Of a DNA stretch of 64,000 bases, positions 22,427-59,960 are shown piece after piece; within the stretch, counting starts at the first letter, position 1, and every line of letters begins with the position of its first letter. This stretch comes from a virus. Lineage: Duplodnaviria > Caudoviricetes. The notes below the pieces were generated by a model, which worked only from the letters and a program-made list of their open reading frames with translations, had not been told where the DNA came from and did no database searches. The stretch spans positions 481-64,480 of the IMG/VR virus record IMGVR_UViG_2865512620_000005; one strand, 5' to 3'. A program made the translations under genes and the position numbers.

Positions 22427-22461
22427 CCGATCGGAGCACCGGGGCGTGACACTCTTCGCGG

Positions 22462-23991
22462 GTGTCCGCCCCGGTTGCGTTGTTGACGGCTGTTCGCCAC
22501 GTGCGGGCCATCCGCGCCCAACGTCGGCCGGCGACCCCTGCGGAGCTGGCACGTCGCCTCGACCCGAAATTTCGTGTGACGCCCACGATCCGGCTGCTGT
22601 CCGACCTCGCGGTCCGGTCCGTCAACGAGCCCGACGAGCGCGACGCAGTGTCGACGCCGCCGCGGACCGGCAAGTCGCGGATGCTGGCCATCTGGACGTC
22701 GGTCTGGGCGCTGATGCAGAACCCGGACCTCGAAATCGTGATCGTGTCCTACTCGGATGAGCTGGCGCAGGTGCATTCTCGTGAGGTCCGCAAGATCATC
22801 AACGAGCACGGCGACTTTCTCGGCTTCCGGTTGGCGCGGGACAAGACGGCGGTTGGTCAGTGGCGCGTCGAGGGCCACGAAGGCGGCGTCCTGGCGACGG
22901 GCATCAACTCGGGTGTGACGGGTTTCGGCGCGGATCTGATGATCATCGATGACCCGGTTAAGGATGCGGCGGAGGCGGATTCGAAGGCGCACCGCAAGCG
23001 CGTGCTGAACGAATTCCAGTCGACGTTGTCGACGCGTGTGCACCCGGGCGGCTCGATCCTGTTGGTGATGACCCGTTGGCATGAGGAGGATCTGGCCGGC
23101 GCGTTGTTGAAGCAGGATCCGAAGCGGTGGCGGCGCACCAACATTCCCGCCGTGAGCGACGCGAAGATTCCTGACGCGTTGGGTCGGCCGCCGGGTGTGG
23201 CGATGATCTCGGCGCTGGGCTACACGGCAGCGGATTTCGCGGCGACGCGCCGCATGGTGGGGGAGCGGGTGTGGTTCGCGCTGTATTGCGGGGAGCCGAA
23301 GACCCCGGCGGGCAGCTTGGTGAAAGCGGCGTGGTTGGACGGGTGGCGGTTGCCGGTGGCGCCGGCGCGGCCGGTGTTCACGGTGGTGGCTGTGGACCCG
23401 AGCGATTCGGGTGAGGGCGACTCGTGCGGTTTGGTGGCGACGTCGATGACGGCTGGCGGTGTGGTGGCGATGATCGCGGACATCTCGGCGCCGATGACGT
23501 CGGACGCGTGGGCCGTGGCTGCGGTGGACCTCGCGGTGAAGGTGGGGGCGAGTCAGATCACGGTGGAGGGGTTTTCCGCGCGGGAGACGTATGTGCGGGT
23601 GGTTCGGGCGGCGATCGGGCGGGCGGTCGAGGCAGGCACGTTGGGCCGTGAGATTCGGGTGACGTCGTGGCCGCCGAAAGGCCGCGCGCGGGTGGGGGAT
23701 GCGGTGGCCCGTTCGGCGGCATTGCTGCAGGCGCTGGAAACCGGAACCTGCCGTCTGGCGGGGCATTTCCCCGATTTCGAGATCAAAGCGGTGGCGTGGC
23801 AGGCGGGCCAGCATCAGCCGGACAACCTGGCAGCGCTGGTGATTGGCCACGATGAATGCGTGCATGCCGCTGGCCTGGAGTGGGACATGGCGGCACCGCT
23901 GACCGAGGGCCAGGGCGCGGCGTCGGACGGGCCGGAGCGCGGTGGCTCGGTGGTGAGCATGGACGATTGGATGTCGCGCAAGATCGGGTGA
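22462..23991 (+). CDS. terL: Terminase large subunit
   Basis: Walker A STPPRTGKS, Walker B LMIIDDP, MTRWHEEDL, VAVDPS nuclease motif, HQPD. Confidence 0.92.
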   Translation: MSAPVALLTAVRHVRAIRAQRRPATPAELARRLDPKFRVTPTIRLLSDLAVRSVNEPDERDAVSTPPRTGKSRMLAIWTSVWALMQNPDLEIVIVSYSDELAQVHSREVRKIINEHGDFLGFRLARDKTAVGQWRVEGHEGGVLATGINSGVTGFGADLMIIDDPVKDAAEADSKAHRKRVLNEFQSTLSTRVHPGGSILLVMTRWHEEDLAGALLKQDPKRWRRTNIPAVSDAKIPDALGRPPGVAMISALGYTAADFAATRRMVGERVWFALYCGEPKTPAGSLVKAAWLDGWRLPVAPARPVFTVVAVDPSDSGEGDSCGLVATSMTAGGVVAMIADISAPMTSDAWAVAAVDLAVKVGASQITVEGFSARETYVRVVRAAIGRAVEAGTLGREIRVTSWPPKGRARVGDAVARSAALLQALETGTCRLAGHFPDFEIKAVAWQAGQHQPDNLAALVIGHDECVHAAGLEWDMAAPLTEGQGAASDGPERGGSVVSMDDWMSRKIG

Positions 23992-24070
23992 CGTCTGCGG
24001 CGAACACGGCGCACTGTGTGGAGTTGGGGCTGATGTCCGCCGGGTCCGCAAGCACGCCATACTGCCAAGT

Positions 24071-25066
24071 GTGGACGACACAGAGTATCTCGCATCACCC
24101 GCTGGCCAGGCGTACTACAACTTCCATGAGTTCATGGAGAGGGTCTTTCACCTCACCAACATGGCAAAATCTGGTATTGGAATTACTAGCGGCTTAGGAA
24201 TGTTATTTATTAGGGCCCTATCTAAAGATGATAAGTACAAAGACGAACTCAAACGGCTCGAAAAGGTTGCCAAAGACCCACTTCTTCACTCAATGTCCAT
24301 AATGGCCGCTTGGGGAGCCTTCGATGCGTTCATTGATGACTTCTGCAAAGGAGTGTTAGCTGCCGATCCGTCGTTACTGGAAGATAAAGACATAAAGAAC
24401 AAAAGTGTAAAGGTTCACCACCTTCTAGCGCCGCAGGAAGTCAAGCTCGAATTGGTCTATGAAGCAATCAAGTCCAGCATCGATACGCGCAAGGTCGAAG
24501 AACGCGTCGAACAGACCCTCGGATTTCTCAATCTCAATACACCGCAGACAGCGTCGTCAATCACAGCGGCATTCGTCGACTCGTACAAGATTCGAAACGT
24601 ATGGGCGCACAGTTCCGGAAGAGCCGACGCGAAGTTCGTCAAAGAAGCGAGGCACCTTGGATTCAATGTCGGTGATGAAGTCTCACTGACGTTGGATCAG
24701 ACAACTCATTACGTCGGTGCCATCTGGTACTACGGTCTGGCAGTTAATAACCGACTGAGGCTCAAATACAATTTGGAGCCAGCAATCCTTCTAACAGATG
24801 CTGTAGGCGCAAAACTAAAACAAGACTTCCATAAAATGTACCCCCAGTATCCCCACATAAAGCAAACTGGAACTGGACCCGGCTGGTGGGCCGAGACACC
24901 CGAGGAGATGGAGCAGACACGGCTCGCGTCAGAAGCTGCAGCGAGCGCGGCCGACGCTACCCCGGACTCTCCACCAGATGCGTCAAGGCCAGTGTCGGAT
25001 GCACCTTCGCCAACTCCTCCAGATGGGGAAGAACCCCCAGCTGGCGCCCGTGGCCAAGGCGACTAG
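24071..25066 (+). CDS. Low-GC accessory gene, HEPN-like (RxxxxH) putative RNase
   Basis: KIRNVWAHSSG motif and a SIMAAWGAFDAFIDD helix; clearly more AT-rich than its flanks. Confidence 0.65.
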   Translation: MDDTEYLASPAGQAYYNFHEFMERVFHLTNMAKSGIGITSGLGMLFIRALSKDDKYKDELKRLEKVAKDPLLHSMSIMAAWGAFDAFIDDFCKGVLAADPSLLEDKDIKNKSVKVHHLLAPQEVKLELVYEAIKSSIDTRKVEERVEQTLGFLNLNTPQTASSITAAFVDSYKIRNVWAHSSGRADAKFVKEARHLGFNVGDEVSLTLDQTTHYVGAIWYYGLAVNNRLRLKYNLEPAILLTDAVGAKLKQDFHKMYPQYPHIKQTGTGPGWWAETPEEMEQTRLASEAAASAADATPDSPPDASRPVSDAPSPTPPDGEEPPAGARGQGD

Positions 25067-25189
25067 CTGACGTAGCAAGCCTTCGCCCTTCACCTATGCA
25101 GTGCTGCGGGTCACTCGCAGCGTAACGTTTTGGGTGTCAACATGTTCCGTGCGCACAGCTCACTGACTGGTGGGCTTACGGTGGCGTTC

Positions 25190-25705
25190 GTGACGCAGCC
25201 TCCACGCTGGCAGCCTGATGAGCACATGGTTGCCGCGGTGCTGTCGACGCCGAAAGCCTCGCGGAAGATGACGGAGCTGTCGGACGCTGACCGGGCCTGG
25301 CTCGTCGCCGGTCTGACGCTCGCTGGGGTGACGGCGCAGGACATCGCCGACCGTATGTCGTGCTCGCTGCGGTTGGTGCGGTCGATCCGCGCGGAGGACA
25401 TCACCCAGATGGCCGTCGTGGCGCAGACCGAAACGCGTGCGCTCGGTGACGATCTGCGCACTGAGCGTTGCGATCACGCGTTGACCCGCCGGAATCTGGC
25501 TGAGGCTGAGGCGGAGCTGGAGCGACTGCGGGCCCAGTTCGATCAGGTCGTCGACGCCCACATGACCGGCGAGTTGAAGACCTTCCCGAGGTGCGGGCAT
25601 CCGATGGTGCCGTACAACACCTACGAGCACGGCGGCCGGAAGTGGTGCCGGACCTGTGGCCGGAAGCGGAAAGCTGAGAGCCGTAGGGCATTAGCTGCCG
25701 TCTGA
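25190..25705 (+). CDS. HTH DNA-binding protein with coiled coil and C-terminal Zn ribbon
   Basis: LAGVTAQDIADRMSCSLRLVRSIR; CGH...WCRTCGR; start uncertain. Confidence 0.7.
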   Translation: MTQPPRWQPDEHMVAAVLSTPKASRKMTELSDADRAWLVAGLTLAGVTAQDIADRMSCSLRLVRSIRAEDITQMAVVAQTETRALGDDLRTERCDHALTRRNLAEAEAELERLRAQFDQVVDAHMTGELKTFPRCGHPMVPYNTYEHGGRKWCRTCGRKRKAESRRALAAV

Positions 25706-25763
25706 CCTGCGGTGTCCTCACCGGTTGGGACAGTTTCACCCCTGCTACATAGCGTCCCGGCCC

Positions 25764-26180
25764 ATGAATCTTAGTCTCGGACAATCCATTCTGATTCTCG
25801 TCGTCTACGTGCTGGCCGTGATGCGGCTCGTGCGCCTGGTCAACTTCGACACCGTGCTGGACCCGTTGCGGATTCGGATCGCACGCCGGGCCCAGACCGC
25901 GAAGTTGGCCGGTGAAGAGGCGGAGGTGAACATGCAGCCCATCGCGGCGGAGCTGCATCTGCGGACGATGGCGCGGTGGAACACTCTGGCGTACTTCCTG
26001 GGATGCCCGTGGTGCGTGGGGTTTTGGCTGTCGCTGGCCACGGCAATCTTGCCGGTGTGGCTGATCGGGTGGCCGTGGTGGGCGGCGTTCGGAGTCGCGT
26101 TGGCCACCAGCCACCTCGTCGGGCTGGCGGCGCCGTTGACGGCGGACGAGGACATGGAGATCGTCGAGAACGCCGAGTAA
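25764..26180 (+). CDS. DUF1360-like membrane protein
   Basis: LAVMRLVRLVNFDTVLDPLR...LGCPWCVGFW. Confidence 0.75.
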   Translation: MNLSLGQSILILVVYVLAVMRLVRLVNFDTVLDPLRIRIARRAQTAKLAGEEAEVNMQPIAAELHLRTMARWNTLAYFLGCPWCVGFWLSLATAILPVWLIGWPWWAAFGVALATSHLVGLAAPLTADEDMEIVENAE

Positions 26181-26207
26181 ACACCCAGCTTGGCTACCGT
26201 CTCGCTC

Positions 26208-28118
26208 GTGGCAGCTCCGGATTTGCGCGTCGTTCGACGCCGTAAGGGCACCGCGCTGGTCGCGTCCGGTGCGCGTCCTGTCGCGCTGACGGCAGCCAGC
26301 GCACCGGTGAGCGACCCGAGCAAGGTGTTCGGCGCCGCGACGATGGGGCGCCGCAACAACTGGCAGGCCGACGCCTGGGAGATGCATCGGCAGGTTGGTG
26401 AGCTCGGCTATTACGTGCGGTGGCGCTCCAAATCGTGCTCGCGGGTGCGGCTCGTCGCGTCGGAGATTGACCCCGACACTGGGTTGCCGACCGGCAGCAT
26501 CGATCCCGACAACGCGGAAGGTATGCGGTTCGCGGAGATCGTGCGCGAGATCGCCGGCGGACCGCTGGGCCAGGCGAAGATCATCAAACGCGCCACCGAG
26601 TGCCTCACAGTGCCCGGCGAGCACTGGATCGCGATCCTGATGCGGCCGGCGGCGGGCTGGGCGGATGGTTCACTGCTGCCTGAGCGGTGGTTTGTGGTCA
26701 CCCGCAAGGAAATCGAAAAGGGTGCGCGGCGCAACAGCGTCGTAATCAAACTGCCGGACGGGTCCAAGCACGAGTTCGACGCCACAGCCGGGGATGGCAT
26801 CTTTCGGGTGTGGAATGAGGACGCTGAGGACGCATCCGAGCCGACGTCGCCAGTGCAGGCTTGCATGGACCCGCTGCGTGAGATCGTCCGTACGACAAAG
26901 AAGATCCGCAACGCCGACAATTCGCGGCTGCTGAACAACGGTCTGCTGTTCGTGCCGTCGGAGGCGAGCCTGCCGGATTCGCAGGCGCCGGTGTCGGCGG
27001 ACAAACCGTCCGGGTCACCGACGCCACCAGCTCGCCGACAGGGTGTGGCGGAGAAGCTGCAGCACATGATCGTTCGTGTTGGTGAGACGGCAGCGAAGGA
27101 TCCGGACAGCATGGCGGCCTTGGTTCCCGTCGTGGTCGCGGCGCCGGGTGAGCACCTGTCGAAGATCCATCACCAGGAGATCGGCAAGGACGTCACCGAC
27201 ACGGCGCTTAGGACGCGCACGGAGGCGATCGCGCGGCTCGCGATGGGCCTGGACATGTCGCCGGAACAGTTGCTCGGGCTCGGCAACTCGAATCACTGGT
27301 CTGCGTGGCTGCTGTCGGACAACGATGTGCAGCTGCACGTGTCGCCGGTGCTTGAAACGATCTGCCAGGCGATCTATGACAATGTGCTGCGCCACATGCT
27401 GGTCGCGGCCGGGATCGATCCGGACAAGTATGTCCTGTGGTACGACGCGAGTCGCCTGACCGCCGACCCGGACAAGACCGACGAGGCCCGCGACGCGTTC
27501 GACCGCGGCGCTATCACGGCCGAGGCGTTGGTCCGTCAGTACGGGTTGCCCGATGACTCGCTCTACGACTTCTCGACCCTCGACGGCTGGAAACAGTGGG
27601 CGCAGGACAAGGTTTCGCAGGATCCGACGCTGTTGCCGACGTTGTTGCCCCTGCTCGACGAGAGTGTGCAGGCGATCGACTTCCCTGAGCCGCAGCCTGC
27701 GTTGCCGCCGGCCGACAACCAGCAATCCGATGACGAGTCGGGCGCTGACGGGCAGCAGGAACCGGCCACCGAGGACAACAGCGGTGACCAGGCGGCGGGC
27801 CTGCGTGGCGATGTCGAACTGGCCGTTGTGGACCTACTCGTCGGCCGGGCACTGGAGTTGGCGGGCAAGCGGCGTGTCCGGACGAACGACCGGGTGCAGC
27901 ACGCGCGCCTGCGTGACGTCGCGACCCGGGACTATCACCGGTTCATGCCGCCGGTCGACGACGGTGAAGTCGGCAGGTTGATCAAGGGATTTGACGATGT
28001 GCTCGACGGTGATTTCGCCGCGGCGCACGGTCTGGACCCTGAGCGCGTTCGGGCGGCGGTGCGGCGTATCGCGCGGCGCGAGCTCACCGCCCAGGTGGTC
28101 GACGGGCAGGTGGTCTGA
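26208..28118 (+). CDS. Portal protein
   Basis: Position; WQADAW..VGEL, NNGLLFVP, RLAMGLDMSPEQLLG..NHWSAW. Confidence 0.85.
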   Translation: MAAPDLRVVRRRKGTALVASGARPVALTAASAPVSDPSKVFGAATMGRRNNWQADAWEMHRQVGELGYYVRWRSKSCSRVRLVASEIDPDTGLPTGSIDPDNAEGMRFAEIVREIAGGPLGQAKIIKRATECLTVPGEHWIAILMRPAAGWADGSLLPERWFVVTRKEIEKGARRNSVVIKLPDGSKHEFDATAGDGIFRVWNEDAEDASEPTSPVQACMDPLREIVRTTKKIRNADNSRLLNNGLLFVPSEASLPDSQAPVSADKPSGSPTPPARRQGVAEKLQHMIVRVGETAAKDPDSMAALVPVVVAAPGEHLSKIHHQEIGKDVTDTALRTRTEAIARLAMGLDMSPEQLLGLGNSNHWSAWLLSDNDVQLHVSPVLETICQAIYDNVLRHMLVAAGIDPDKYVLWYDASRLTADPDKTDEARDAFDRGAITAEALVRQYGLPDDSLYDFSTLDGWKQWAQDKVSQDPTLLPTLLPLLDESVQAIDFPEPQPALPPADNQQSDDESGADGQQEPATEDNSGDQAAGLRGDVELAVVDLLVGRALELAGKRRVRTNDRVQHARLRDVATRDYHRFMPPVDDGEVGRLIKGFDDVLDGDFAAAHGLDPERVRAAVRRIARRELTAQVVDGQVV

Positions 28119-30950: not shown

Positions 30951-30960
30951 GTATCCGACC

Positions 30961-30993: not shown

Positions 30994-31121
30994 CGTGTTC
31001 TGGGTTGCTGCACGGTGCCCTCTTACTGTCCGGCGCCAGAGAGTTCCTGCCATGCGCTATGTGCCGGGGAGCGATCGGAAACAGGCAGTACCCCTTTTGA
31101 TCCGAGACAGGAGCCATTGCA

Positions 31122-33167: not shown

Positions 33168-33195
33168 TCGAGACCCGGGCGCATCGCAATGGACG

Positions 33196-33243
33196 AGGCG
33201 GGCGGCGTGAACAGCATCCGAGGCTTTCTCACGCCGCCCGCCT
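33196..33243 (+). terminator. Stem-loop after capsid gene
   Basis: AGGCGGGCGGCGTGA...TCACGCCGCCCGCCT. Confidence 0.65.
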
Positions 33244-33268
33244 TCCCCGGTAGAGAGGACCGCACGCC

Positions 33269-35902: not shown

Positions 35903-36033
35903 GCAGGGTTAGACGCAGCGCCAGCACCGGTGGTTCCACTCGGATTGCTGGTGCACCCACTGCTCTTACTGTTCGGCGCAGCCTCGGATACCGACCGGCG
36001 CGAAGCGCCTGATAGCAGGAGGAAGGCCAGCTC

Positions 36034-37101: not shown

Positions 37102-37115
37102 GCAGTTCTGGTCGT

Positions 37116-37147
37116 GGGTGGCACTCACTGCTTTGGGGGTGCCACCC
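37116..37147 (+). terminator. Stem-loop after major tail gene
   Basis: GGGTGGCAC...GTGCCACCC. Confidence 0.55.
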
Positions 37148-37190
37148 GCCCAGGGTCTTTCACCTTCCCCACGGTTGATCGGAGCGCCGC

Positions 37191-38681
37191 GTGACTTTCA
37201 CCCCGAAGACTTGGCATGACAGCCCGGACAGGTCGACGCCGATCACCGCTGCTGAGCTGAATCGGATCGAGCAAGGTGTTGGCGACGCTTTTATGGAGCT
37301 GACGTCGTTCGTGAACGTCAAAGCCCGGGCGTACGGGGCAAAGGGTGACGGCACCACCGACGACACAACGGCGCTCAACAACGCCAAGGCTGCGGCCGTA
37401 GCAGCGGGCCTGCCGCTGTACATCCCGAAGGGCACCTACAAGATCACCAGCACGCTGGACTGGATGGTCAACGACCTTGTGGTGGTCACCGATGGATCGC
37501 GGCTGTCGCAGATCCTGCAGGCCACGAACAACATTCCAGTGGTGAAGGTCGCAGGCGAGCATCAGCACATCGGTGGTCTCGGTCTCCGGTTCGCGTCGCA
37601 ACAGACCAGCGCCCAGACCTCCGGGATCGGTATGGCGTTCGGTGACGACGCCGTCGGCTCGTGCTTCGCCTCGCAGTTCTACGACCTGCGGTTCGTGAAC
37701 TGTGCCATTCCGATGGCGATGAACCCGGCGATCAATACAGTGGCTGGCCTGTTCTCGAGCCAGTTCTTTGGTATGGACATTACGTCCTACAGCATTTCTG
37801 CGATTGACTTCACCGGCGGCAATGATGTCGGTGCGTACGCGACCGGATGCGTCTTCAACAACACGTACCTCGGCAACAGTTCCGACGGCACCGCATGCTC
37901 GTCGTATGCGATCCGGCTGCGTGATTGGGACGAGGTGGTCTTCAACCAGCTGAATATCGAGCACGGAACCGTCAACACCACAGATGTTTTCGGTCTGATC
38001 CGGGTGAACAACCTCGTGGTCAACGATCTGCATTTCGAGAAGATCACCTCCAGCTTTAACGGCGCGGCCCTGATGTACCTGTCGAACTCGCGGGCCGTGA
38101 TCAACTCCGGGACGGCGCGTTTCAACACGTTTTCGGGGTCTGCGTCGAATCCGGTGTTCCGCATGTTCGGCACGTCGAAACTCGTCGTCAACAACTGGGT
38201 GGACAACTCCAACACTCGCACCACTCCGTCGCGGCCCGCGATCGACTTCGGTTCTGCTACCAACAGTTCCGCGCTGATCAACCACATGGATCTCGGACAG
38301 ACCACGGCGCGCCGGACCGGCGGCGACTCGACCGACGCGGCGATCTTCCACGATGAGATCGCGACGCGCGCACCGCGCACCGCGTCCGTCGCGTCCAGCG
38401 CTACCCCGTCGATCAACTGCGACACCACCGATCAGCTGAACCTCACCGCGCTGGCTGTGCCAATCACCGGCATCACGGTCACCGGAACCCCGCGGGACGG
38501 ACAAGAACTGACGATTCGGTTCAAGGACAACGGCACCGCGCAGGCCATCACGCACGGAGCCAGTTTCGTCGGAACACTGCTCACCACCACCGTTGCAGGA
38601 AAGACCCACGTGTGCACGTACCGGTACGACGCGGCGGCCGCCAAGTGGGCAGGGACCATCGCGAACACGGCTGGCTACTGA
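37191..38681 (+). CDS. Beta-helix (pectate-lyase-3-like) spike / putative depolymerase
   Basis: VNVKARAYGAKGDGTTDDTTALNNA..LYIPKGTYKI; N-terminal TW..TPITAAELNRIEQG anchor-like segment. Confidence 0.75.
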   Translation: MTFTPKTWHDSPDRSTPITAAELNRIEQGVGDAFMELTSFVNVKARAYGAKGDGTTDDTTALNNAKAAAVAAGLPLYIPKGTYKITSTLDWMVNDLVVVTDGSRLSQILQATNNIPVVKVAGEHQHIGGLGLRFASQQTSAQTSGIGMAFGDDAVGSCFASQFYDLRFVNCAIPMAMNPAINTVAGLFSSQFFGMDITSYSISAIDFTGGNDVGAYATGCVFNNTYLGNSSDGTACSSYAIRLRDWDEVVFNQLNIEHGTVNTTDVFGLIRVNNLVVNDLHFEKITSSFNGAALMYLSNSRAVINSGTARFNTFSGSASNPVFRMFGTSKLVVNNWVDNSNTRTTPSRPAIDFGSATNSSALINHMDLGQTTARRTGGDSTDAAIFHDEIATRAPRTASVASSATPSINCDTTDQLNLTALAVPITGITVTGTPRDGQELTIRFKDNGTAQAITHGASFVGTLLTTTVAGKTHVCTYRYDAAAAKWAGTIANTAGY

Positions 38682-38682: not shown

Positions 38683-39441
38683 ATGCCCTTTGTCTGGCCG
38701 ATCGACCGCACCTGCTTGCCAGAGCTTCCGGTGCTGCCGGACACCCCGACCGCCGACGAGCAAGCCGCCTACGACGTCGCGCTGGCACAACGCAACGGCG
38801 CCGAAGACCTGGCGGTGCAGGTGCTGTGGGCGTTGTCCGGACGGCAGTTCGGTGTGTGGGAAACGACCGTGCGGCCCTGCCCGATCAACGTGAGCCTTTC
38901 CGGATACGAAATGCCCTGGGCGCAACCGTTTGTCTTGACCCTCGACGAGGGCCATTGGTTCAACTGGCCGTGCGGCTGCATCGGAAGCTGCACACTCAGC
39001 GGGCCCCGCGTGGTGCACCTGCCCGGACCGGTCGACGAGATCACCGCGGTGACCATTGACGGCGTGGCTCTCGACCCTAGTGAGTACCAGCTGGAGGGAA
39101 ACGTCCTGTACCGCAAGGGCGCATCGTGGCCACGTCAAGACCTCGGCCGGCCCCTGGGCGAGTCCAGCACGTGGTCGGTGACCTACACGCGCGGTAACCC
39201 CGTCCCGGCGGGTGTCGACCGCCTCGGTGGCCTGCTGGCCAAGGAATTCCTGGCCGCGTGCGGTGGCGGGAAATGCCGACTGCCCCGCAATGTTCGCAAT
39301 GTGTCGCGCCAGGGGGTCACCTACGAGGTGTACGACCCGCGCGACATCTACGCCAACGGCAAGACAGGTCTGGCCGAGGTTGACCTGTGGTTGGCCGCGG
39401 TGAACCCGAACCGTCTGGCCGAGGCCCCGGAGGTGCTGTGA
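38683..39441 (+). CDS. Head-to-tail adaptor
   Basis: VLWALSGRQFG..VRPC, CRLP..VSRQGV, TGLAEVDLWLAAVNP. Confidence 0.75.
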   Translation: MPFVWPIDRTCLPELPVLPDTPTADEQAAYDVALAQRNGAEDLAVQVLWALSGRQFGVWETTVRPCPINVSLSGYEMPWAQPFVLTLDEGHWFNWPCGCIGSCTLSGPRVVHLPGPVDEITAVTIDGVALDPSEYQLEGNVLYRKGASWPRQDLGRPLGESSTWSVTYTRGNPVPAGVDRLGGLLAKEFLAACGGGKCRLPRNVRNVSRQGVTYEVYDPRDIYANGKTGLAEVDLWLAAVNPNRLAEAPEVL

Positions 39442-40720: not shown

Positions 40721-40756
40721 CACGGGTTTGCACCACGCCGCAGCACCATGCTCGGC

Positions 40757-41326
40757 ATGCCTACCTATGCCTCGGATGGAACTGAACTGACCGACACCGT
40801 TGTCCCGGCCGCGTCGCCTGTCGTTGAGCAGGACGTCGCCGTCGTTGTCGACCCCGAACCCGAAGTCGTCGTTGAGCCGGAACCGCTGCCGTCGGAGCTT
40901 CACGCCGTCGACGAGGCCACCGTTCACGACGCCGAAGTGGTCGTGGTCGACGACGAACCCGCAGCCGACGGGAAGTGGGTGCACCAGTCCGAATGGAACT
41001 ACGACTGGCTCAACTACAACGGCGACATGCTGGCCTTCCGTGTGCCACACCAGAACGCGCTCACCGCGCTGTTCCAAGCTGGCCAGCAGTGCAGTCCAGA
41101 ATTCCAGGCCGACCTCACGGTGAAGTTCGTCAAGCGGCACATCTCGCAGGAGAGCATCGAGCGGGTCCTCGAGCGCATGTCAGACCCCGACGACGAGGCT
41201 TACACCAGCGTGGTGGGCGGCGTGTGGGGTGACTTGCTCAAGAGAATCGCGGAGATCGGCGGCAAGCGCGCCGTGAAGGACGCTGAGGCGCTGCTGGCGG
41301 TGCAGAGCGGGAAAGCCAAGGCGTAG
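40757..41326 (+). CDS. Tail assembly chaperone
   Basis: Immediately upstream of the tape measure gene. Confidence 0.6.
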   Translation: MPTYASDGTELTDTVVPAASPVVEQDVAVVVDPEPEVVVEPEPLPSELHAVDEATVHDAEVVVVDDEPAADGKWVHQSEWNYDWLNYNGDMLAFRVPHQNALTALFQAGQQCSPEFQADLTVKFVKRHISQESIERVLERMSDPDDEAYTSVVGGVWGDLLKRIAEIGGKRAVKDAEALLAVQSGKAKA

Positions 41327-41351
41327 CACCCTGTCTCGCTAGCTTGACCCG

Positions 41352-49421: not shown

Positions 49422-51799
49422 GCGGCGTCGCGACCCTGCAGCGTCCGCCGCGCACCGATCAGGAATGGGCGCGGCAGATTTCGCGTCGGCTCGATGTGCT
49501 CGAGAACCCCCGGTCACTGCGGGTGTCGGACTGGGTGATCAATTCTGTCGACGGGAAACTGATCGCGACGCGGCCCGGTCAGTCCGTCGACCTGGACAAC
49601 CCGGCGGGCCCGGTGTCGGTCGACCTGGGGAGCCTGCGCGGGTTCACGAGCACCGATCGCGAAGAGGTTATCAACGAGGCGAAAACGTCGGCGTGGCAGG
49701 AGCTTTACGAGAAGCTCACCGGCCAGCTGAACCCGGTTGACGCACTCAAAAGCTTGTCCGATTTCTTCCGTATCGAGCTCGGCGGCCCGATCAGCGCTGA
49801 CCGGATCCCACTGATCCCGCTGACGCATATTCGCGACATCAACCGCAACCTGATCCTCGACGGCGGGTTCGACACCGGCGACACCCTGCTGGGCCTGCCT
49901 GACTGGACCCACGATGCCACCGACGGCCGAAGCAAGCCCGGCTGTGCCGTCACAACGGCCGACGGCACCTCACATGTCATCTACAGCAACGACATCCAGG
50001 TCGCCAAGGACGACAAGCTCAACCTGTCGGTGGCGGTGAAATGGGTTGGCCTGACGGCGTTGGCCGGCAGCGACGCGATCCGGCTCAACGTCGTCGCCTA
50101 CGACGCGAGCGGCGTGATGATCGGCGGCGCCCCCACCATGGTGGCGTCGGTGGCCAGTCCGTCGGGTAACAGCGGCGGCACCAACGGGTGGGGCACGACG
50201 CTCAGCGGCACCTACACCGTGCCGGCCACCGCGGTGATCGTGACCGTTGAACTGACCGTGATGGCCACCGCCACTGCGGGCACAGTGAAGTTCGACGATG
50301 CCGAGTCCCGCAAGACCGGCAGCTTCCTGCAGGACTACGTCAAGGATCTGCCTGCCGATCTCCAGTCGTTGCTCGGATGGATCGAGGCCACCGTCAACGC
50401 CGGACTGGGCGCGCTCGGTATCCCCGCGATGGGCAGCCTGGCAGACAAACTGCTCGACTTCCAGGACGGGCTATCGGACCTACAGAACGCCGCCGAGGAT
50501 GCGTTCGCCAACGCGCAAAACGCTCTCGACTCCCTGGCCGACAAACTCGGCATCTCCGATTGGGATGACTGGCTCACGAATCAGTGGGGCAACCTGCGTG
50601 ACGCACTGGCCAACGCGCCCGCGACGGTGATCGGGATGCTGGACATGACCCGCATCACGGGCCTGCCGGACCTCAACACCCAGGCCACCCAGCTAATCGA
50701 GATCATCGCCGGGCACGCTGTCACACCGATCACTTCGGCGTTGCAGCAGGCCAAGGACTGGATTACTGGCACGGGCAGCAAGACACAGTTCCTCACCTTC
50801 GGTGGGCTTTTCGACCCCACGAAGCTCAATGGCCAGGTGCCGTCGAACGGCGTGGCCGGCATCGGCGGTGCGACGAGCATCGGTGACGCGCTTCAGCAGG
50901 CAGTCGATGCGGTCACCCAGGGAGCCGGTGGCTTGGGTGGCTCCGGGTTCAACTTTCTCGATGCGCTCGCGCAGTTGACCGGTCTGCGCCAAGCAACGGC
51001 GGGCGCGAACGCCGCAGTCCTCAATGTGCAATCGCAACTGGCTGGCCTGGATCCGGCCGCGTCGTCGGAGATCATCAACTTCAGCGAGTATGTGAATGCC
51101 GGTGCCCCGCCGTCGATGTTCACCAAGGTCTTCGACCAGGGATCCGGCGGCATCGTCACCTCGGGCGGAAAGTTGGTGTGGTCGGGCAGCGCTGGCGATG
51201 AGCGCTACCTGTTCAACGGCGGCCCCCTGCAGACCGATCTGTTCGAGGTCAATGTCGTTCTGCCGACGGTCCCGTCGCACGGGTGGTTCGGCGCCGATGG
51301 CAACAACTTCATCTATCTCATCGGCCGATCCGACGCCGCCGGGAACAACATGTGTATCGCCGAAATCGGCTGGGACCGTGTGCGAATCATGTCGTACAAC
51401 ACCGGCACCACCACCGTGCTGGCCACCGTCAATCAGTCCGACATAGTCACCGGCGGCTGCCGTGTGGCGTTCAAGGGCGGTAACGCCCTGCAGCCGCGCT
51501 ACTTCCACGTCGCGGTCAACGACGACATCGTCACCTCAGCCACCGACATCGCGCCGATCACCCAACTGGGCAGCAGCTTCCGGCTGTGCGGACTTGGCCT
51601 CAAGAAAGATTCCAGCTACGACACTGGCACCATCTCTGCCTGGTCCATGCTCGACGGTGGCGCATCGGCAGGGTCCGGCGTCGTTGCGGGTATGACCGCG
51701 GCGGGGCCCACCAACCTGATCATTTGGAAGGGCACCGCTGCTGAGTACGCTGCCATTCCGACGAAGAACCCCAACACGATCTACGCGGTGAAGAACTGA
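49418..51799 (+). CDS. Minor tail protein / central fibre with carbohydrate-binding-like domains
   Basis: NLILDGGFD CBM-like domain; C-terminal WKGTAAEYAAIPTKNPNTIY. Confidence 0.75.
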   Translation: MSGVATLQRPPRTDQEWARQISRRLDVLENPRSLRVSDWVINSVDGKLIATRPGQSVDLDNPAGPVSVDLGSLRGFTSTDREEVINEAKTSAWQELYEKLTGQLNPVDALKSLSDFFRIELGGPISADRIPLIPLTHIRDINRNLILDGGFDTGDTLLGLPDWTHDATDGRSKPGCAVTTADGTSHVIYSNDIQVAKDDKLNLSVAVKWVGLTALAGSDAIRLNVVAYDASGVMIGGAPTMVASVASPSGNSGGTNGWGTTLSGTYTVPATAVIVTVELTVMATATAGTVKFDDAESRKTGSFLQDYVKDLPADLQSLLGWIEATVNAGLGALGIPAMGSLADKLLDFQDGLSDLQNAAEDAFANAQNALDSLADKLGISDWDDWLTNQWGNLRDALANAPATVIGMLDMTRITGLPDLNTQATQLIEIIAGHAVTPITSALQQAKDWITGTGSKTQFLTFGGLFDPTKLNGQVPSNGVAGIGGATSIGDALQQAVDAVTQGAGGLGGSGFNFLDALAQLTGLRQATAGANAAVLNVQSQLAGLDPAASSEIINFSEYVNAGAPPSMFTKVFDQGSGGIVTSGGKLVWSGSAGDERYLFNGGPLQTDLFEVNVVLPTVPSHGWFGADGNNFIYLIGRSDAAGNNMCIAEIGWDRVRIMSYNTGTTTVLATVNQSDIVTGGCRVAFKGGNALQPRYFHVAVNDDIVTSATDIAPITQLGSSFRLCGLGLKKDSSYDTGTISAWSMLDGGASAGSGVVAGMTAAGPTNLIIWKGTAAEYAAIPTKNPNTIYAVKN

Positions 51800-53133: not shown

Positions 53134-53143
53134 GGGCTGACGC

Positions 53144-54298: not shown

Positions 54299-54326
54299 CT
54301 GCACGCGGCTCAACCACTATGACCGC

Positions 54327-54713
54327 GTGGCCAACACCGGTATCACCGCTTATCTGGCGAACAAGCTCCTCGATCACGTGTGCCGCAACGTCGCCTACAC
54401 ACCACCCGCGGTGGTGTACTTCCAAGCGCACACCGGCCAACCCGGCGCCGCCTGCAGCTCGAACGTCGCGACCAACACCACGCGGTACGCCTGCTCATTC
54501 GCGGCGGCGGCGTCCGGCGCGATCGCACTGTCCAACACCCCCGAACACACCCTGGGCGGCACCAACACCGTCACCCACGGATCGTTCTGGGACACGGCCA
54601 GCGGAGGCAACGCGCTGTGGAGTGCAGATGCTTCGGTCGCAAAAGGTGGTGTGTCCGGTGACATCATCCGCGTCACCACCGCGCCGCTGTCCTTCTCGCC
54701 GATCGCATCGTAG
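54327..54713 (+). CDS. Minor tail / fibre-associated protein
   Basis: YLANKLLDH..HTGQPG..THGSFWDTASGGN. Confidence 0.65.
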   Translation: MANTGITAYLANKLLDHVCRNVAYTPPAVVYFQAHTGQPGAACSSNVATNTTRYACSFAAAASGAIALSNTPEHTLGGTNTVTHGSFWDTASGGNALWSADASVAKGGVSGDIIRVTTAPLSFSPIAS

Positions 54714-54721
54714 GAGACACC

Positions 54722-55078: not shown

Positions 55079-55107
55079 CCGCACCGCCGCTCCGTAACCT
55101 CACCGCC

Positions 55108-55749
55108 GTGGCGATCACGGAGTACACCGAGCCGAACGTCTGCATCGGGGAGAACCTCACCACCGACGACGCCGGACAGCTCCGTTTGCAGCCGTGGGCG
55201 GTGCCGCGTCTCGTTGCTGATGTGCGGGGCAATTCGGGTGGTGACGGGAAGGTATACCCGACCACTGCGCTGCCGGGAAAGCTGCTGATCGACATCAAAG
55301 CTGGGTGGCGCAATGAAACTCCGCTCGAGCAGCAGTTGTTGATCCGCGTGGTCCGCGGCCCGCGCTACTGGCTGACCAGCAACCCGAACGCGATTCAGTT
55401 CCGTGACCGCTGGACCTACGCGATGGACGCCGAACCCGGACCGCCGATCACGTCGGGAATCTTCAACGGGCAGACCGGATCCGCGATCGACCTGGGCACC
55501 AACAGTGTCGCCGAGCCTCAGCCAGGGCAGCAGTGGATGTGGACCGACACCAACATGGTCGACGAGTGGGTGCCCTACCCGATCGGGCCCGGCCAGTCGT
55601 TCAAGGCCTGGTACCGCTGCTACGTGTGGACGCCGCCGCCGTGGAGCGACAACGCGAACAAGAACAGCCCGAAGCATGAGGCGAAAGCGAATTGGGCTCG
55701 GCTACAACTGATCGCGTTCGGACAGCAAGGAAATGTGGTGACCGGATGA
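55108..55749 (+). CDS. Tail/baseplate-region protein, paralog 1
   Basis: QPW..PRLVA...WRNETPLEQ..RGPR. Confidence 0.65.
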   Translation: MAITEYTEPNVCIGENLTTDDAGQLRLQPWAVPRLVADVRGNSGGDGKVYPTTALPGKLLIDIKAGWRNETPLEQQLLIRVVRGPRYWLTSNPNAIQFRDRWTYAMDAEPGPPITSGIFNGQTGSAIDLGTNSVAEPQPGQQWMWTDTNMVDEWVPYPIGPGQSFKAWYRCYVWTPPPWSDNANKNSPKHEAKANWARLQLIAFGQQGNVVTG

Positions 55750-55850: not shown

Positions 55851-56446
55851 CCGTCAAACCCTGCACCATGGAGGGGATGCTGGCCACGGTCGACGGTCTC
55901 GACATGGCGCGGCACTGGTTTCCCCGCATTGTCGCCGAACGATTCCTCGAATCCACCAAGGACGGCACGATCAGCCGCGCCCCCGACCCGGTGACGATGA
56001 TCAGCGGCGACATAGACTGGTACAACAACACCGGTGACCCGCAAGTCGTTGCCGTGCAGGTCAATAGAGCACCGCGCAGCATCGTCGCGCAGAACCCCGG
56101 CACCGTCGTGATCCACGACGCCTGGTCGCACGCGCAGGGTGTCAGCCCCACCGCCGACTACCCCAGCATCGTTCAGGACGCGTTCGGTGGCCGCGCCCAG
56201 GTCGACCGGCCGGAGGCCCGCGCGGAGGACCTGAAATACGGGCGCCTGTTCATCGACGGTGACGGCTCGCAGGCGTGGGTGCCGATCGGCGTCCTGCCGG
56301 CGAAGCATTCGCTGCACTTCCGCTACCTCGCCGCGGTCCAGACTCCCGGCGTGTGGACGTCGGCCAGCGAGTTCGAGTCGCGGTGGGAAGCGCACGCCCG
56401 CTGGGCCCGCCTGCTGGTATTTGCCACCCCGGTGGGTTCGGCATGA
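55847..56446 (+). CDS. Tail/baseplate-region protein, paralog 2
   Basis: HWFPRIVA...WYNNTGDPQ..RAPR. Confidence 0.65.
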   Translation: MTVKPCTMEGMLATVDGLDMARHWFPRIVAERFLESTKDGTISRAPDPVTMISGDIDWYNNTGDPQVVAVQVNRAPRSIVAQNPGTVVIHDAWSHAQGVSPTADYPSIVQDAFGGRAQVDRPEARAEDLKYGRLFIDGDGSQAWVPIGVLPAKHSLHFRYLAAVQTPGVWTSASEFESRWEAHARWARLLVFATPVGSA

Positions 56447-57753
56447 GCGGCGCCAACAGTGAGCACTTCGCGATCGTCGACGAAGCGATCGAACCGCAGC
56501 CATGGACGCAATACCGCCAGCTGGCCAGCCGGACAGCCACATCGGTATCCCGCAGCTACGACACGAGCGGTGGCGGCAACAAAGCAGACCTGGTGCACAG
56601 CGTCGACATTCAGTGGACGAACAACAGCCCAGTGCCGCAGCAGGTTTACGGTCTCGTGACCCGGGCCGGCGCACAGGTGACATTGCAGGCCCGGTCCCGC
56701 GGCTACCTCGTCACCTCGCACGGCATCGACATCCGACCCACCGCGACGCCACCAGCGAGTTTCGACATGGTGGAGGTGTCGCGGTTCGGGTGCGGCATGG
56801 ACATCGGCAAGGGCGGAACCCTCGCATTGGGTACCAGCTTCGGTGTGCACGAAGTGCGGCAAAACAGCCAGAGCGCACCGTTGATGCCGCAGACCCCCGG
56901 GTGGCCGATGGTGGCGCCGGGGGAGACGTTCTTCGCGCGCGTGACCGTCCGATTCGTCAGCGATTTCTGGGAGAACACCACCATCGACGGCGGCGACCAG
57001 AACACCGAGTCGTTGTTCATCTCCGGCGATACACGCGTCGACCTGTTCGGAATCCCCAGCGTTGCAGGCGGTCCGCTGCCGTCACGGCCGGTCCCCACGG
57101 TCGTGGGGGTGGAGCACTCCACCAACAACACGTTCCCCACCGACGTCGATGTGCCGGCCGGAACAGCGGCGGGCGACGCCATGTTGGCGATCGTGGCGAA
57201 CAACATCGGCCTGGCCTCCGACATCACCCCGTCCGAATCCGGTTGGACCGAGCTGCATGTCCGCAATGACGGACTGATGGGCATCGGCGACGTCCACATG
57301 AAGGTGTACGGCCGCATCGCGTCGGCAGCCGAACCGGCTTCCTACCACTTCACCACCGGCGTGCTGGCCGAGGAGATCGTCACGCTCGTGGTGCTGCGCG
57401 ACGCCTCCACGGACTTCACCGAGTGGCGATTCGCCTCCACCCTGTCCCGGCGGTTCTGGGAACGCGGCGACGGCGGCCACGTGTGCCCCAGCATCGACAG
57501 CCGCGGTCAGCTGCTGTTGTGCGCCTCCCACATCGCTCACACGCCGCTGCAGGCGCCGATCAACCAGGCACCCCCGGCCGGCATGACCGCGCTGTCCGAC
57601 GTCGACGCCACCGGCTCCACGATGGCGGTCGCCGCGCTCGCCAGTCCGCCGCGGCCCACGCTGGACCGGTCGTTCACCCCGACCAAGGAACCCCAGTGGT
57701 CCGGGCGCGCGATCGCCCTGTCGGTGCTGGTGCCCGGCACCCCCGTCATCTGA
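56443..57753 (+). CDS. Tail/baseplate-region protein, paralog 3 with extra C-terminal domain
   Basis: QPWTQYRQLA...WTNNSPVPQ..RAG; VPAGTAAGDAMLAIV domain. Confidence 0.65.
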   Translation: MSGANSEHFAIVDEAIEPQPWTQYRQLASRTATSVSRSYDTSGGGNKADLVHSVDIQWTNNSPVPQQVYGLVTRAGAQVTLQARSRGYLVTSHGIDIRPTATPPASFDMVEVSRFGCGMDIGKGGTLALGTSFGVHEVRQNSQSAPLMPQTPGWPMVAPGETFFARVTVRFVSDFWENTTIDGGDQNTESLFISGDTRVDLFGIPSVAGGPLPSRPVPTVVGVEHSTNNTFPTDVDVPAGTAAGDAMLAIVANNIGLASDITPSESGWTELHVRNDGLMGIGDVHMKVYGRIASAAEPASYHFTTGVLAEEIVTLVVLRDASTDFTEWRFASTLSRRFWERGDGGHVCPSIDSRGQLLLCASHIAHTPLQAPINQAPPAGMTALSDVDATGSTMAVAALASPPRPTLDRSFTPTKEPQWSGRAIALSVLVPGTPVI

Positions 57754-57763
57754 GCCAGCCCAG

Positions 57764-58450
57764 ATGTTTGATCCGCCCGAGGGCTTCGACGACATGCTGG
57801 GCGACGCCGTGCTGGCGCCGCTGACGGGCCCGGTGTTGGACCTCGATGTGCCGGACGTCGGCGTCGTGAAGGCCCGTCGGCCGATGCCGAGATCGGCGGC
57901 CGCGCTGGCAATGTCAGGCAACCCGAAGATCACCCCGGAGGAACGGCACCGCCACCTGACCCAATTCGTCCGGGACCACCTCGACGACGGCGAGTTTGAG
58001 CGGCTGCTGTCAGCCATGATGGCCGACGAACTCCCCGGCGACACCACCACGCGCGTGGCGCGCGGGCTGGCGACCTGGGGCACCGCACGCCCCTATGTCG
58101 CCGTGATCATCCTGGCGGTGATGGCCGGCACGCACTGGCGAACCGTTCGACAGCGGATGCGGTCGGACGGAATCGCTGACCCGATGCGGGAACTACCGCA
58201 CATGCACGCCGTCATCGATGAGATCGAAACACTCGCGCTGGAGGGCACGGCCAGCACGGGCGATAAGGATCGGGATCGGCTGGCCCGCGAGGACCTGATG
58301 GACCGGCTGTATGCGCCCGAGCCGGAAGGGGCGGAACGCCTGAACGGCAAGGACTATCGGGCGCAGGTCAAACCTCCCGAGGGCTTCACGCCTGGTGAGG
58401 TGGAGGCGTCGTTCGATGCGTTCACGCGGGCGATGTCGGGGATGCGGTAG
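57764..58450 (+). CDS. Hypothetical protein, possible long-form tail assembly chaperone
   Basis: N-terminal half resembles the product of 40757-41326. Confidence 0.55.
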   Translation: MFDPPEGFDDMLGDAVLAPLTGPVLDLDVPDVGVVKARRPMPRSAAALAMSGNPKITPEERHRHLTQFVRDHLDDGEFERLLSAMMADELPGDTTTRVARGLATWGTARPYVAVIILAVMAGTHWRTVRQRMRSDGIADPMRELPHMHAVIDEIETLALEGTASTGDKDRDRLAREDLMDRLYAPEPEGAERLNGKDYRAQVKPPEGFTPGEVEASFDAFTRAMSGMR

Positions 58451-58479
58451 CTGCACGCTGGGCCCATAACCTGCGGGGC

Positions 58480-58893
58480 ATGTCGACGTTGGTTCCGTTC
58501 CTCGATCTGTCGAAGCCAGTCGGTGAACGGCTGGCGCCGCAGATGCAGCAGGAGATCGCCGAGGTCGCACCGTCCGGGCTGGTCAACGGGGCTGTCACCA
58601 CAGCGAAGCTGGCCGAGAAAGCCGTCACGGGCCCGAAGCTCGCCGACGGGGCAGCCACCACAGAGAAGATCGCCACCAACGGTGTGGAAGCCGTCAACCT
58701 CGCCCCCGGCGCCGTCACCACCCCCAAGCTCGACGACGACGCGGTCACCGCAGCCAAGGCAGGTCTGGGTGTCGTCACCGCCTACGACAAGGATGGCAAC
58801 CCTGTCGATGCGCCGATGGTGTTCATGACTCAAACCGAGTACGCAGCCATCACGCCGGTGCCGGGCGTCACCTACATGCTGCGAGCTGGCTGA
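58480..58893 (+). CDS. Short fibre-like protein
   Basis: GAVTTAKLA 10-aa repeats; C-terminal TQTEYAAITPVPGVTY. Confidence 0.65.
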   Translation: MSTLVPFLDLSKPVGERLAPQMQQEIAEVAPSGLVNGAVTTAKLAEKAVTGPKLADGAATTEKIATNGVEAVNLAPGAVTTPKLDDDAVTAAKAGLGVVTAYDKDGNPVDAPMVFMTQTEYAAITPVPGVTYMLRAG

Positions 58894-59579
58894 TGCCCAT
58901 CCCGGGGATCGTCACCATCAAACGCGACGGACAGGACATCGTCGAGATCCGCCGCGATGGTCAACTGCTCTGGTCGACATCGTCACTTGGGGACTACTTC
59001 GACCGAGATGATCTCGGCGCCAACTGGGTTCACTACGGCCCGGCGAGCGACTATGTGGCTGGCATCGTGGACGGGTCGCTTCGCCTCGACATTCCCGACG
59101 GGTTGCTGGCCGCGGCCCTCAAGACCGACCGCGTGCGGCTCAACACCGGCACGACCGGTGCCGATGACTATTACCTCGAATTCCGTATCGGCTCGCAGGG
59201 TTCCGGCAACAGCATCACTAACACGCAGCACCGCACGCAGGTGTTCGCGCGGGTGTCCAACGGTGCTTTCACGCACGGCGTCGGTGTCGAGCTGCTCAAC
59301 TCCAAGCTGGCGATCGTGCGCCGCGTCGCCGGCACCGACACCATCATGGTTCCGGACTGCGGCGCCTACGCTGCCGGCGACATCTGCCGCCTGTCAGGTG
59401 TGGGGAACCTGCACACGTTGCGCCGCAATGGCAAGTTCGCGGGGGAGTGGCCGGACAACGCCGGCACCGCGGCGAAGGGCGCGGGCTACCGCAGTATCGG
59501 TGCCCGGGTGGATGCGTCGAAGGATGCGCTTGGGCCGCGCCGGTTCTCGCCGACGATCGATTGGATTGTGGCCGGATAG
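58893..59579 (+). CDS. Fibre tip / lectin-like protein
   Basis: DYFDRDDLGANW beta-sandwich-like domain; coupled to the previous gene. Confidence 0.6.
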   Translation: MPIPGIVTIKRDGQDIVEIRRDGQLLWSTSSLGDYFDRDDLGANWVHYGPASDYVAGIVDGSLRLDIPDGLLAAALKTDRVRLNTGTTGADDYYLEFRIGSQGSGNSITNTQHRTQVFARVSNGAFTHGVGVELLNSKLAIVRRVAGTDTIMVPDCGAYAAGDICRLSGVGNLHTLRRNGKFAGEWPDNAGTAAKGAGYRSIGARVDASKDALGPRRFSPTIDWIVAG

Positions 59580-59612
59580 GGCTTGCACCCTGCAGCTTTA
59601 CCGTCCGGTGTC

Positions 59613-59960
59613 GTGCTCGGAAAACTGCTCGCATCGCTCGTGCCCATCCTCGGAAAAGCCATCTTCGACTACGCGGTGGAGTGGTTGAAGGACCCCGCCA
59701 ACCGCGACGACATCGACTCAGCAACCAAGTTCGTGCGGGAGCAGGCGGCCGAGGTGTTGCCGTCCCTCGTCGACAAGGCCACCAACGTCATCCCCGGCCA
59801 GCTCGATGACCAGGTCCTCGACAGCCTGGCGCGTCGTCTCGCACCGATGCTCGCCGGTCACTTGCCCGACCTCGGCGCCCTCACCAACGTGGTGGCCCAG
59901 TTGCAGCAGTTCGCCGGCCGGCTGCCCAACCTCGGTGGCCTGTTCGGCGGTGGCCGCTGA
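59613..59960 (+). CDS. Hypothetical protein preceding lysin A
   Basis: Leaderless start after a late-promoter motif; IPGQLDDQVLD. Confidence 0.6.
   Translation: MLGKLLASLVPILGKAIFDYAVEWLKDPANRDDIDSATKFVREQAAEVLPSLVDKATNVIPGQLDDQVLDSLARRLAPMLAGHLPDLGALTNVVAQLQQFAGRLPNLGGLFGGGR

Follow-up and report, generated by a model that had tools for sequence, protein, structure and literature searches.

PafBC and SiwR promoters carry a SigA −10 hexamer, lack a −35 hexamer, and have a short element within −23 to −28, which, in the published descriptions of the two systems, is read by the activator in place of sigma domain 4 (PMC8635444, PMC10693628). In PafBC promoters this “−26 element” zone, −23 to −28, holds the triplet GTC, as it is described in PMC8635444. 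The subject of this report is a motif of similar geometry, (T)GCAC(C) placed exactly 10 nucleotides (nt) 5′ of a −10-type hexamer, which recurs in a prophage within a 64,000-nt stretch of DNA (IMG/VR virus record IMGVR_UViG_2865512620_000005, positions 481 to 64,480; Caudoviricetes), called the window below. The window represents positions 36676-100675 of a sequence in an actinobacterial genome of 7.9 Mb and 66% G+C. The virion genes of the prophage share ~70% DNA identity with the Mycobacterium phages Dori, Sejanus, and Mask and with Mycobacterium abscessus prophages such as prophi88-1, and a more remote kinship connects the prophage to Jeon-like phages, Cluster B phages, and some Gordonia phages. 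Self-trained gene calls place a nearly continuous rightward gene array at ~2,500 to 62,900.

An earlier note on this DNA had listed eleven copies of CAC-N10-YANNNT and had read them as late promoters with PafBC-like geometry. The geometry itself holds, as the sites have no −35 hexamer and their element falls into the −23 to −28 zone. The element, however, reads GCAC(C) instead of GTC as in PafBC or GGA as in the published SiwR promoters. Moreover, the phage window contains no gene with a WYL domain (PF13280 has four matches in the genome, none of them inside the window), and no host regulon carries the phage motif. Because of the differing triplet and the missing WYL gene, membership in the PafBC class was rejected, and the likeness is one of geometry only. 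Further differences from both systems are the many copies in one operon, their mostly leaderless placement, and a candidate reader with a helix-turn-helix (HTH) and a zinc ribbon that has no family assignment. Action of host WYL proteins on the motif is conceivable, even though no host regulon has it. The note had also equated the 10-nt spacer with that of PafBC promoters; the RecA-NDp motif probably has a different spacing.

The middle promoters of T4 follow a similar concept, in which the host −10 is kept and the −35 contact is replaced by a phage box (the MotA box at −30, with AsiA; “sigma appropriation”). Box position, sequence, and host differ from the case described here. The comparison of such promoters with T4 is also drawn in PMC8635444. 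In Mycobacterium smegmatis, ANNNT is found at −6 to −13 in 79% of 6,090 promoters, 24% of the transcripts are leaderless, and the promoter survey reports no −35 consensus (PMC6448022). Leaderless SigA promoters of mycobacteria, and those predicted for Cluster O phages, place TANNNT a few nucleotides ahead of a start codon that coincides with +1, as is seen here; they have either no upstream element or a −35 hexamer, whereas the phage sites have an invariant CAC at 10 nt and come in 10–14 copies in a virion operon (PMC6448022, PMC4351075). By sequence, the mycobacterial rule (ANNNT at −6 to −13 and +1 at the start codon) fits 9 of the 11 noted sites.

A 2022 review notes that the late promoters of mycobacteriophages, which are highly active and merit study for that reason, have been characterised in few cases (PMC9262239). 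For one of the largest groups of sequenced actinobacteriophages, the motif defines late promoters in a concrete way that can be tested. A search of full texts revealed no account of the motif in Dori or Cluster B, and an earlier description is possible. With somewhat more belief than doubt, we read the sites as a lineage-conserved class of phage promoters, which would combine a SigA −10 hexamer and a mostly leaderless start with a phage-specific (T)GCAC(C) near −26 that is read by a phage protein.

Frequency, placement, and conservation of the motif

All eleven noted sites were found again together with their hexamers. G precedes CAC in nine of them, whereas 25737 has T and 26182 has A in this place (sites are cited here by the first letter of CAC). 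The comparison with shuffled sequences came out differently for the written pattern and for narrower forms of it. CAC-N10-YANNNT is not enriched: the two strands together have 32 matches, compared with 37.6 ± 5.9 in 100 shuffles, 84 of which reach 32; its 24 + strand matches at spacer 10 stay inside the range of 8–28 seen for spacers 4–19. The T-first form CAC-N10-TANNNT has 12 matches (11 on the + and one on the − strand) against 5.96 ± 2.49, a number reached in 2 of 100 shuffles, and GCAC-N10-TANNNT occurs eight times on the + strand at spacer 10, compared with zero to two times at each of 15 other spacers. Furthermore, 12 of the 20 loose + strand matches in 22000-60000 fall into intergenic gaps (binomial P = 1.2e-9), where 20 gaps make up 2,697 of 38,001 nt (7.1%) and the overlapping matches 40731 and 40734 are both counted. 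The significance of the motif is therefore due to its position and its T-first form and not to the frequency of the written pattern. The motif is real, but its original statistics were mis-stated; the copy at terL is open to doubt, while two or more copies have to be added to the list.

A Gibbs sampler that was blind to the motif recovers it in 14 of the 31 gaps of at least 15 nt that served as input. The picks comprise 10 of the 11 noted sites (26182 was missed), the extra copies 17280 and 19100, and two weak ones. Using a matrix trained on 44 sites from the relatives alone, 11 window sites are found on the + strand and none on the − strand at a threshold of at least 12 bits. Additional conserved letters are T/A and G 5′ of CAC and CC on its 3′ side. 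Trinucleotide-dyad enrichment in the 45 nt 5′ of gene starts, a test blind to the TANNNT hexamer, yielded nothing significant.

The motif is located on the virion-gene strand of every relative examined, and gene junctions are shared, among them those of the capsid gene in 7/7 and of the portal gene in 6/7 relatives (Table 1). The counts of copies on the + and − strand are 13/0 in Dori, 11/0 in prophi88-1, 9/0 in Evaa (Gordonia), and 3/0 in TPA2 (Tsukamurella) and, for the first 50 kb, 8/1 in Jeon, 8/0 in AnarQue (Gordonia), and 4/1 in Oline (Cluster B1). The unrelated mycobacteriophages L5 (0/1) and TM4 (1/0), used as negative controls, have no matrix match of at least 16 bits. In the host genome, 20 sites reach at least 16 bits; eight of these lie in the prophage, where 0.066 are expected, and those outside resemble coding sequence. 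Among 551 leaderless candidates of the host, CAC at N10 is present at 11 starts, which is no more than at other spacers. The idea of a host regulon was rejected, since neither the matrix scan of the genome nor the 551 leaderless starts revealed one that carries the motif. The box is phage-specific, and a phage factor is therefore the economical reading.

The hexamer is fixed at position 1 (T/C), position 2 (A), and position 6 (T), which is the −10 type. When it is assumed to occupy −12 to −7, (T)GCAC covers −27 to −23 and CAC −25 to −23. The GCAC(C) element is present in 34/34 aligned sites. Positions −12 to −3 ahead of CAC hold little information, that is, no −35 consensus, and a canonical −35/−10 pair is absent from every site. 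Canonical sigma-70-like promoters have a single match in the late region (24744-24772, in the low-GC insert), where 1.7–2.2 are expected.

The distance between hexamer and start codon is equally constrained. In six genomes, 34 of 55 sites have ATG or GTG 5–8 nt past the hexamer, compared with 20 of 135 controls (Fisher P = 4.8e-10; an open reading frame (ORF) of at least 40 codons was required), and the distances are 7 nt (n = 21), 6 nt (n = 9), and 8 nt (n = 3). For the window, the noted distance of 6–8 nt is confirmed in 9 of the 11 cases, and nine copies fill a gap of 25–34 nt between a stop codon and the next start codon. The late genes of the window have six T-first leaderless starts, all of which carry CAC; the four leaderless starts without CAC belong to a leftward early gene, gene 20106, HicA, and the HTH gene at 25190 itself. 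Shine-Dalgarno (SD) pairing of the motif genes is weak, with a mean of −1.6 kcal/mol, whereas other genes reach −6.2 kcal/mol (P = 8e-5). A leader had been noted for two genes only, capsid and major tail, and strong SD pairing at their starts (−9.0 and −10.3 kcal/mol, respectively) bears this out. Their copies are placed 46–88 nt from the start codon across all relatives, and a conserved leader with an SD comes after each copy. These patterns support the reading of the sites as putative promoters with leaderless starts well.

The proposed reader of the GCAC box

In the proposed mechanism, host RNA polymerase with SigA would read TANNNT, sometimes CANNNT, as the −10 hexamer, and (T)GCAC(C), exactly 10 nt 5′ of it (~−27 to −23), would stand in place of the −35 hexamer. 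A phage protein on this box would replace the contact between sigma domain 4 and the −35 hexamer. Transcription would begin 6–8 nt past the hexamer on the A or G of the start codon, so that the mRNAs of the portal, tape measure, tail chaperone, and lysis genes and of several tail genes would be leaderless. The capsid and major tail genes would instead yield mRNAs with a leader and an SD at the front and a GC-rich hairpin at the 3′ end. A virion operon would thus rely on leaderless translation for its portal, tape measure, and lysis genes. Late timing and a tuning of stoichiometry by the sites, as proposed in the note, remain inference. Such a promoter class, probably switched on by a phage protein, would explain how late genes are turned on in these phages.

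The likeliest reader of the box is the putative HTH, coiled-coil, and zinc-ribbon protein of phrog_928 that is encoded at 25190-25705. It had been named as a candidate activator next to WhiB and the HTH_17 protein and is the best of the three. In a gene-by-gene comparison it is the single non-virion protein common to all compared motif-bearing phages, with the homologues Dori gp5, prophi88-1 gp51, Jeon gp3, Oline gp74, AnarQue gp75, Evaa gp70, and TPA2 orf76, and it occurs in 524 phage records. The gene is part of the late operon beside terL in Dori-like phages, whereas in the lytic phages (Oline, AnarQue, Evaa, and TPA2) it belongs to an operon of the right arm. In the window it has its own hexamer, TACGGT, 7 nt ahead of GTG 25190 and without CAC at N10. 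The HTH residues are invariant in 34 homologues. The structure model of the protein reaches a pLDDT of 94.2, and the top Foldseek rows, all of them weak, are LiaR, VraR, DosR, GerE, and ECF sigma domain 4. Matches to the long helix dominated the VIA search with the whole model. Pfam gives just HTH_23, below the cut-off, and sigma region 4 (PF04545) has no match in the window. A profile of the protein against solved structures returned rows at chance level (best E 0.053), nothing exceeded the NCBIfam cut-offs, and the protein atlas search gave no usable match.

Activator dependence, and the phrog_928 protein as the putative activator, are plausible. A more specific version is put forward tentatively. 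Here, the phrog_928 protein, with its sigma-4/LuxR-like HTH, long helix, and zinc ribbon, would re-aim SigA polymerase to the GCAC box at −26 as a viral sigma adaptation; the motif would be the late promoter class of a Cluster-B-like supergroup, and most of its late genes would be expressed in 10–14 separate, mostly leaderless units and not as one long operon. If true, this would cover more than 500 sequenced phages of Mycobacterium, Gordonia, Tsukamurella, and relatives. An activator of this kind would add a third, phage-borne case of −26-element recognition in mycobacteria, and it would supply a compact inducible promoter/activator pair for mycobacterial genetics.

Several points weigh against the involvement of phrog_928 and against a late phage promoter class. 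Transcription initiation at the sites, the need for an activator, and its identity are inferred from sequence. The loose rule of a start codon after the hexamer also applies to 85 of 361 + strand TANNNT in total. Virion and lysis genes do carry the motif, as had been claimed for late promoters, but it also precedes two non-virion genes in the replication region (17280 for HTH_17 and 19100 for phrog_645); “late” is therefore not a strict label and the class is not restricted to virion genes. The Foldseek matches of the candidate are weak (E of at least 0.2 for the whole model and at least 0.9 for the domain alone), and so is the best VIA match of its HTH, KorB with Z 6.0. As 496 Mycobacterium records appear in both the phrog_928 and the structural-module searches, with every protein-bearing phage sharing the module, protein and motif are co-inherited with the virion module, and their co-occurrence is therefore not independent evidence. 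In Dori-like phages the protein adjoins terL, and it is sometimes annotated as an HNH endonuclease, so that a role in packaging or as a nuclease accessory is possible. Finally, the phrog_928 operon carries the motif in Evaa and TPA2 but not in the window, Jeon, or AnarQue; the regulatory logic of the gene is not uniform between phages.

That the promoters are real and work without any phage factor is unlikely, yet this alternative survives best. RNA polymerase with SigA would then act unaided, GCAC(C) would be a polymerase contact or a habit of the lineage, and timing would come from repression or read-through. The −10 hexamer and its spacing do fit ordinary mycobacterial promoters, for which the M. 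smegmatis survey gives no −35 consensus (PMC6448022). Likewise, the window encodes neither a sigma factor nor a WYL protein, and the candidate activator is unproven. Against a purely host-derived explanation, the leaderless candidates of the host show no excess of CAC at N10 (11/551), and the same prophage lacks CAC at its non-late leaderless promoters. Furthermore, CAC is invariant at a fixed 10 nt in phages of three host genera whose flanking sequences have diverged.

A different activator is improbable. WhiB-family proteins bind SigA domain 4, which would suit the phage WhiB (16893-17150), and the genes of the HTH_17 protein (17311-17535) and of the phrog_645 protein (19126-19599) themselves carry the motif; a host factor induced by infection is the remaining member of this group. 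However, a WhiB homologue is present in just four of the eight motif-bearing genomes (the window, Dori, prophi88-1, and Jeon), and none was detected in Oline, AnarQue, Evaa, or TPA2 at E ≤ 0.01. Homologues of the HTH_17 protein are limited to Dori and, weakly, prophi88-1, those of phrog_645 to Dori and prophi88-1. A host factor would have to act on a motif that occurs in no host regulon.

The chance that the motif acts on RNA is slight. It would serve translation as a start-associated signal, or it would be a site at which a long late transcript is processed into single cistrons, and the nine copies that span a stop-to-start gap at a fixed distance would agree with both. Conserved start-associated motifs are described in actinobacteriophages: Cluster K SAS/ESAS and the 18-bp motif of Microbacterium Cluster EC, 22–30 bp upstream of start codons, resemble the motif in being asymmetric, located in short gaps, fixed in start distance, and cluster-specific (PMC7302621). 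SAS sits at the ribosome-binding site in these descriptions, whereas the phage motif has a −10 signature, a different sequence, and no SD complementarity. Membership in the SAS type was rejected on the position of the capsid and major tail copies and on the weak SD pairing of the motif genes. These two copies, the best conserved, are far from the start codon in all relatives and are followed by an ordinary SD; the motif is therefore not a start-codon-associated RNA signal. In addition, the conserved T, A, and T of the −10 hexamer and the separate box are joined by a 10-nt spacer of variable sequence, and two separate conserved blocks of this kind form a DNA–protein pattern and neither a helix nor a pairing site.

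Highly improbable, finally, is a role as binding sites, all in one orientation, for a repressor that would block elongation in the lysogen in the manner of Cluster A stoperators, which are likewise described as asymmetric intergenic sites spread across the genome, in short gaps and in a single orientation relative to transcription (PMC9934374). Stoperators are contiguous 13–14 bp repressor sites, whereas the phage motif divides its information between two blocks, has a −10 signature, and keeps a fixed start-codon distance. Membership was rejected because the motif persists in Oline, AnarQue, and Evaa, for which neither a repressor nor an integrase is listed (by annotation only).

Sites, leaders, hairpins, and neighboring genes

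The start of terL was placed at 22462 with Pfam Terminase_6N, and the portal, capsid, major tail, tape measure, and LysA genes were assigned through homology to annotated Dori genes. The terL copy had been counted as a full member of the set, which its lack of a counterpart in the relatives contradicts. Pattern matches at 51733 and 20000 are probably due to chance.

Table 1. Positions of the motif copies, the candidate activator gene, the capsid leader, and the hairpins in the window
Feature	Coordinates	Strand	Sequence and distance to start	Bits	Relatives and remarks
Core site, major capsid gene	31010..31029	+	TGCAC-N10-TACTGT; start GTG 31122; leader ~86 nt	19.9	Counterpart in 7/7, 73–88 nt 5′ of the capsid start
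Core site, major tail protein gene	35953..35972	+	TGCAC-N10-TACTGT; start ATG 36034; leader ~55 nt, strong SD	20.8	Counterpart in 6/7
Portal site	26181..26200	+	aCAC-N10-TACCGT; 7 nt to GTG 26208, leaderless geometry	20.4	Counterpart in 6/7, spacing to start 6–7 nt
DUF1360 membrane-protein gene site	25736..25755	+	tCAC-N10-TAGCGT; 8 nt to ATG 25764	19.2	Counterpart in 4/6 with a homologue
Tail assembly chaperone site	40730..40749	+	GCAC-N10-CACCAT (C-first −10); 7 nt to ATG 40757		C-first sites also at this gene start in Dori (CACGCT), prophi88-1 (CACGCT), and Jeon (CACTAT)
Tape measure site	41326..41345	+	GCAC-N10-TAGCTT; 6 nt to GTG 41352	20.3	Counterpart in 3/5 with an alignable N-terminus
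Site of gene 54327-54713	54301..54320	+	GCAC-N10-CACTAT; 6 nt to GTG		Counterpart in 1/3 (Dori, TAGTAT)
Site of gene 55108-55749	55081..55100	+	GCAC-N10-TAACCT; 7 nt to GTG	13.8	Counterpart in 2/7
Site of gene 58480-58893	58453..58472	+	GCAC-N10-TAACCT; 7 nt to ATG	17.0	Counterpart in 4/7
Lysis cassette site	59585..59604	+	GCAC-N10-TACCGT; 8 nt to GTG 59613	22.0	Best score of the genome; LysA homologue at 59960, 3′ of the site
terL site, doubtful	22436..22455	+	GCAC-N10-CACTCT; 6 nt to GTG 22462		Counterpart in 0/7; picked by the Gibbs sampler
Additional site, HTH_17/excisionase-like gene, then RepA-like gene	17279..17298	+	GCAC-N10-TACCGT; 12 nt to ATG 17311	16.7	Same arrangement ahead of Dori gp80
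Additional site, phrog_645 protein gene	19099..19118	+	GCAC-N10-GAAAAT; 7 nt to ATG 19126		Found by the Gibbs sampler; matched at Dori gp83 by AGCAC-N10-CAAAAT with 7 nt to the start
Candidate activator gene, phrog_928	25190..25705	+			N-terminal four-helix HTH, 57-residue helix, C-terminal zinc ribbon
Capsid 5′ leader	31030..31121	+	Blocks AGAGAGTTC ... GCCGGGGAGCGATC		Blocks kept across six phages
16-bp GC-rich hairpin directly 3′ of the capsid gene	33195..33244	+			Gap fold z −2.06; no T tail
GC-rich hairpin directly 3′ of the major tail gene	37114..37149	+			Fold z −2.21; no T tail

The motif is predictive of true start codons, and several annotated starts in the relatives sit 5′ of the promoter. 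The annotated starts of the Dori capsid gene gp10 (8393), the Dori adaptor gene gp19 (14673), and prophi88-1 gene 68 (25111) are located 5′ of or within the motif, which predicts shorter in-frame starts for all three. A degenerate copy in the window at 38709-38727, GCAC-N10-GAGCTT, lies just 3 nt ahead of GTG 38731 of the head-to-tail adaptor gene, which has good motif copies in Dori, prophi88-1, Oline, and Evaa. The copy may be a decayed promoter, or the adaptor start may be mis-called.

The two sequence blocks of the capsid leader are identical in Mycobacterium and Gordonia phages, despite flanks that have diverged. The leader alignment has 12 predicted pairs, two of them with a compensatory change. 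No Rfam family matched in the window, the capsid leader included, and neither the predicted fold of the capsid leader (z +0.69) nor that of the tail leader (z +0.92) exceeds shuffles in stability; a structured RNA is not claimed. The capsid leader may be a protein-binding or translational control element.

Since perfect GC-rich hairpins directly follow the capsid and major tail genes, each of the two genes is bracketed by its own putative promoter and a hairpin. The capsid hairpin is likely a terminator, an attenuator, or a 3′ stabiliser. A scan for consensus terminators found no more sites than in shuffles and missed the capsid hairpin; both hairpins were detected by folding of the gaps.

The major tail gene is followed by an inserted gene (37191-38681, +) for a 496-aa protein with a pectate-lyase-like domain (PF12708), which is not found in the compared relatives except for 30 aa that match Dori gp18. 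A function in virion decoration or as a depolymerase is possible. Between terL and the candidate activator gene, a 331-codon ORF (24071-25066, +) without a Pfam or PHROG match lies in a low-GC island; G+C amounts to 58% in 24001-26000 against ~66% elsewhere. The ORF looks like an acquired moron and is possibly a defence gene. Just 5′ of the packaging genes, a HicA-like toxin (21538-21759) and a HicB-like antitoxin (21762-22175) are encoded on the + strand; this pair has its own TAGACT hexamer 6 nt ahead of ATG and no CAC box.

In the replication region, the order on the + strand is WhiB (16893-17150), a motif copy, the excisionase-like HTH_17 gene (17311-17535), and a RepA-like initiator gene (17532-18713). 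In prophi88-1, the WhiB gene is directly 5′ of the RepA-like gene. Further upstream, 10737-12248 and 12245-13099 (+) encode DNA methyltransferase homologues, which are similar to Dori gp72 and to an adenine methylase of prophi88-1.

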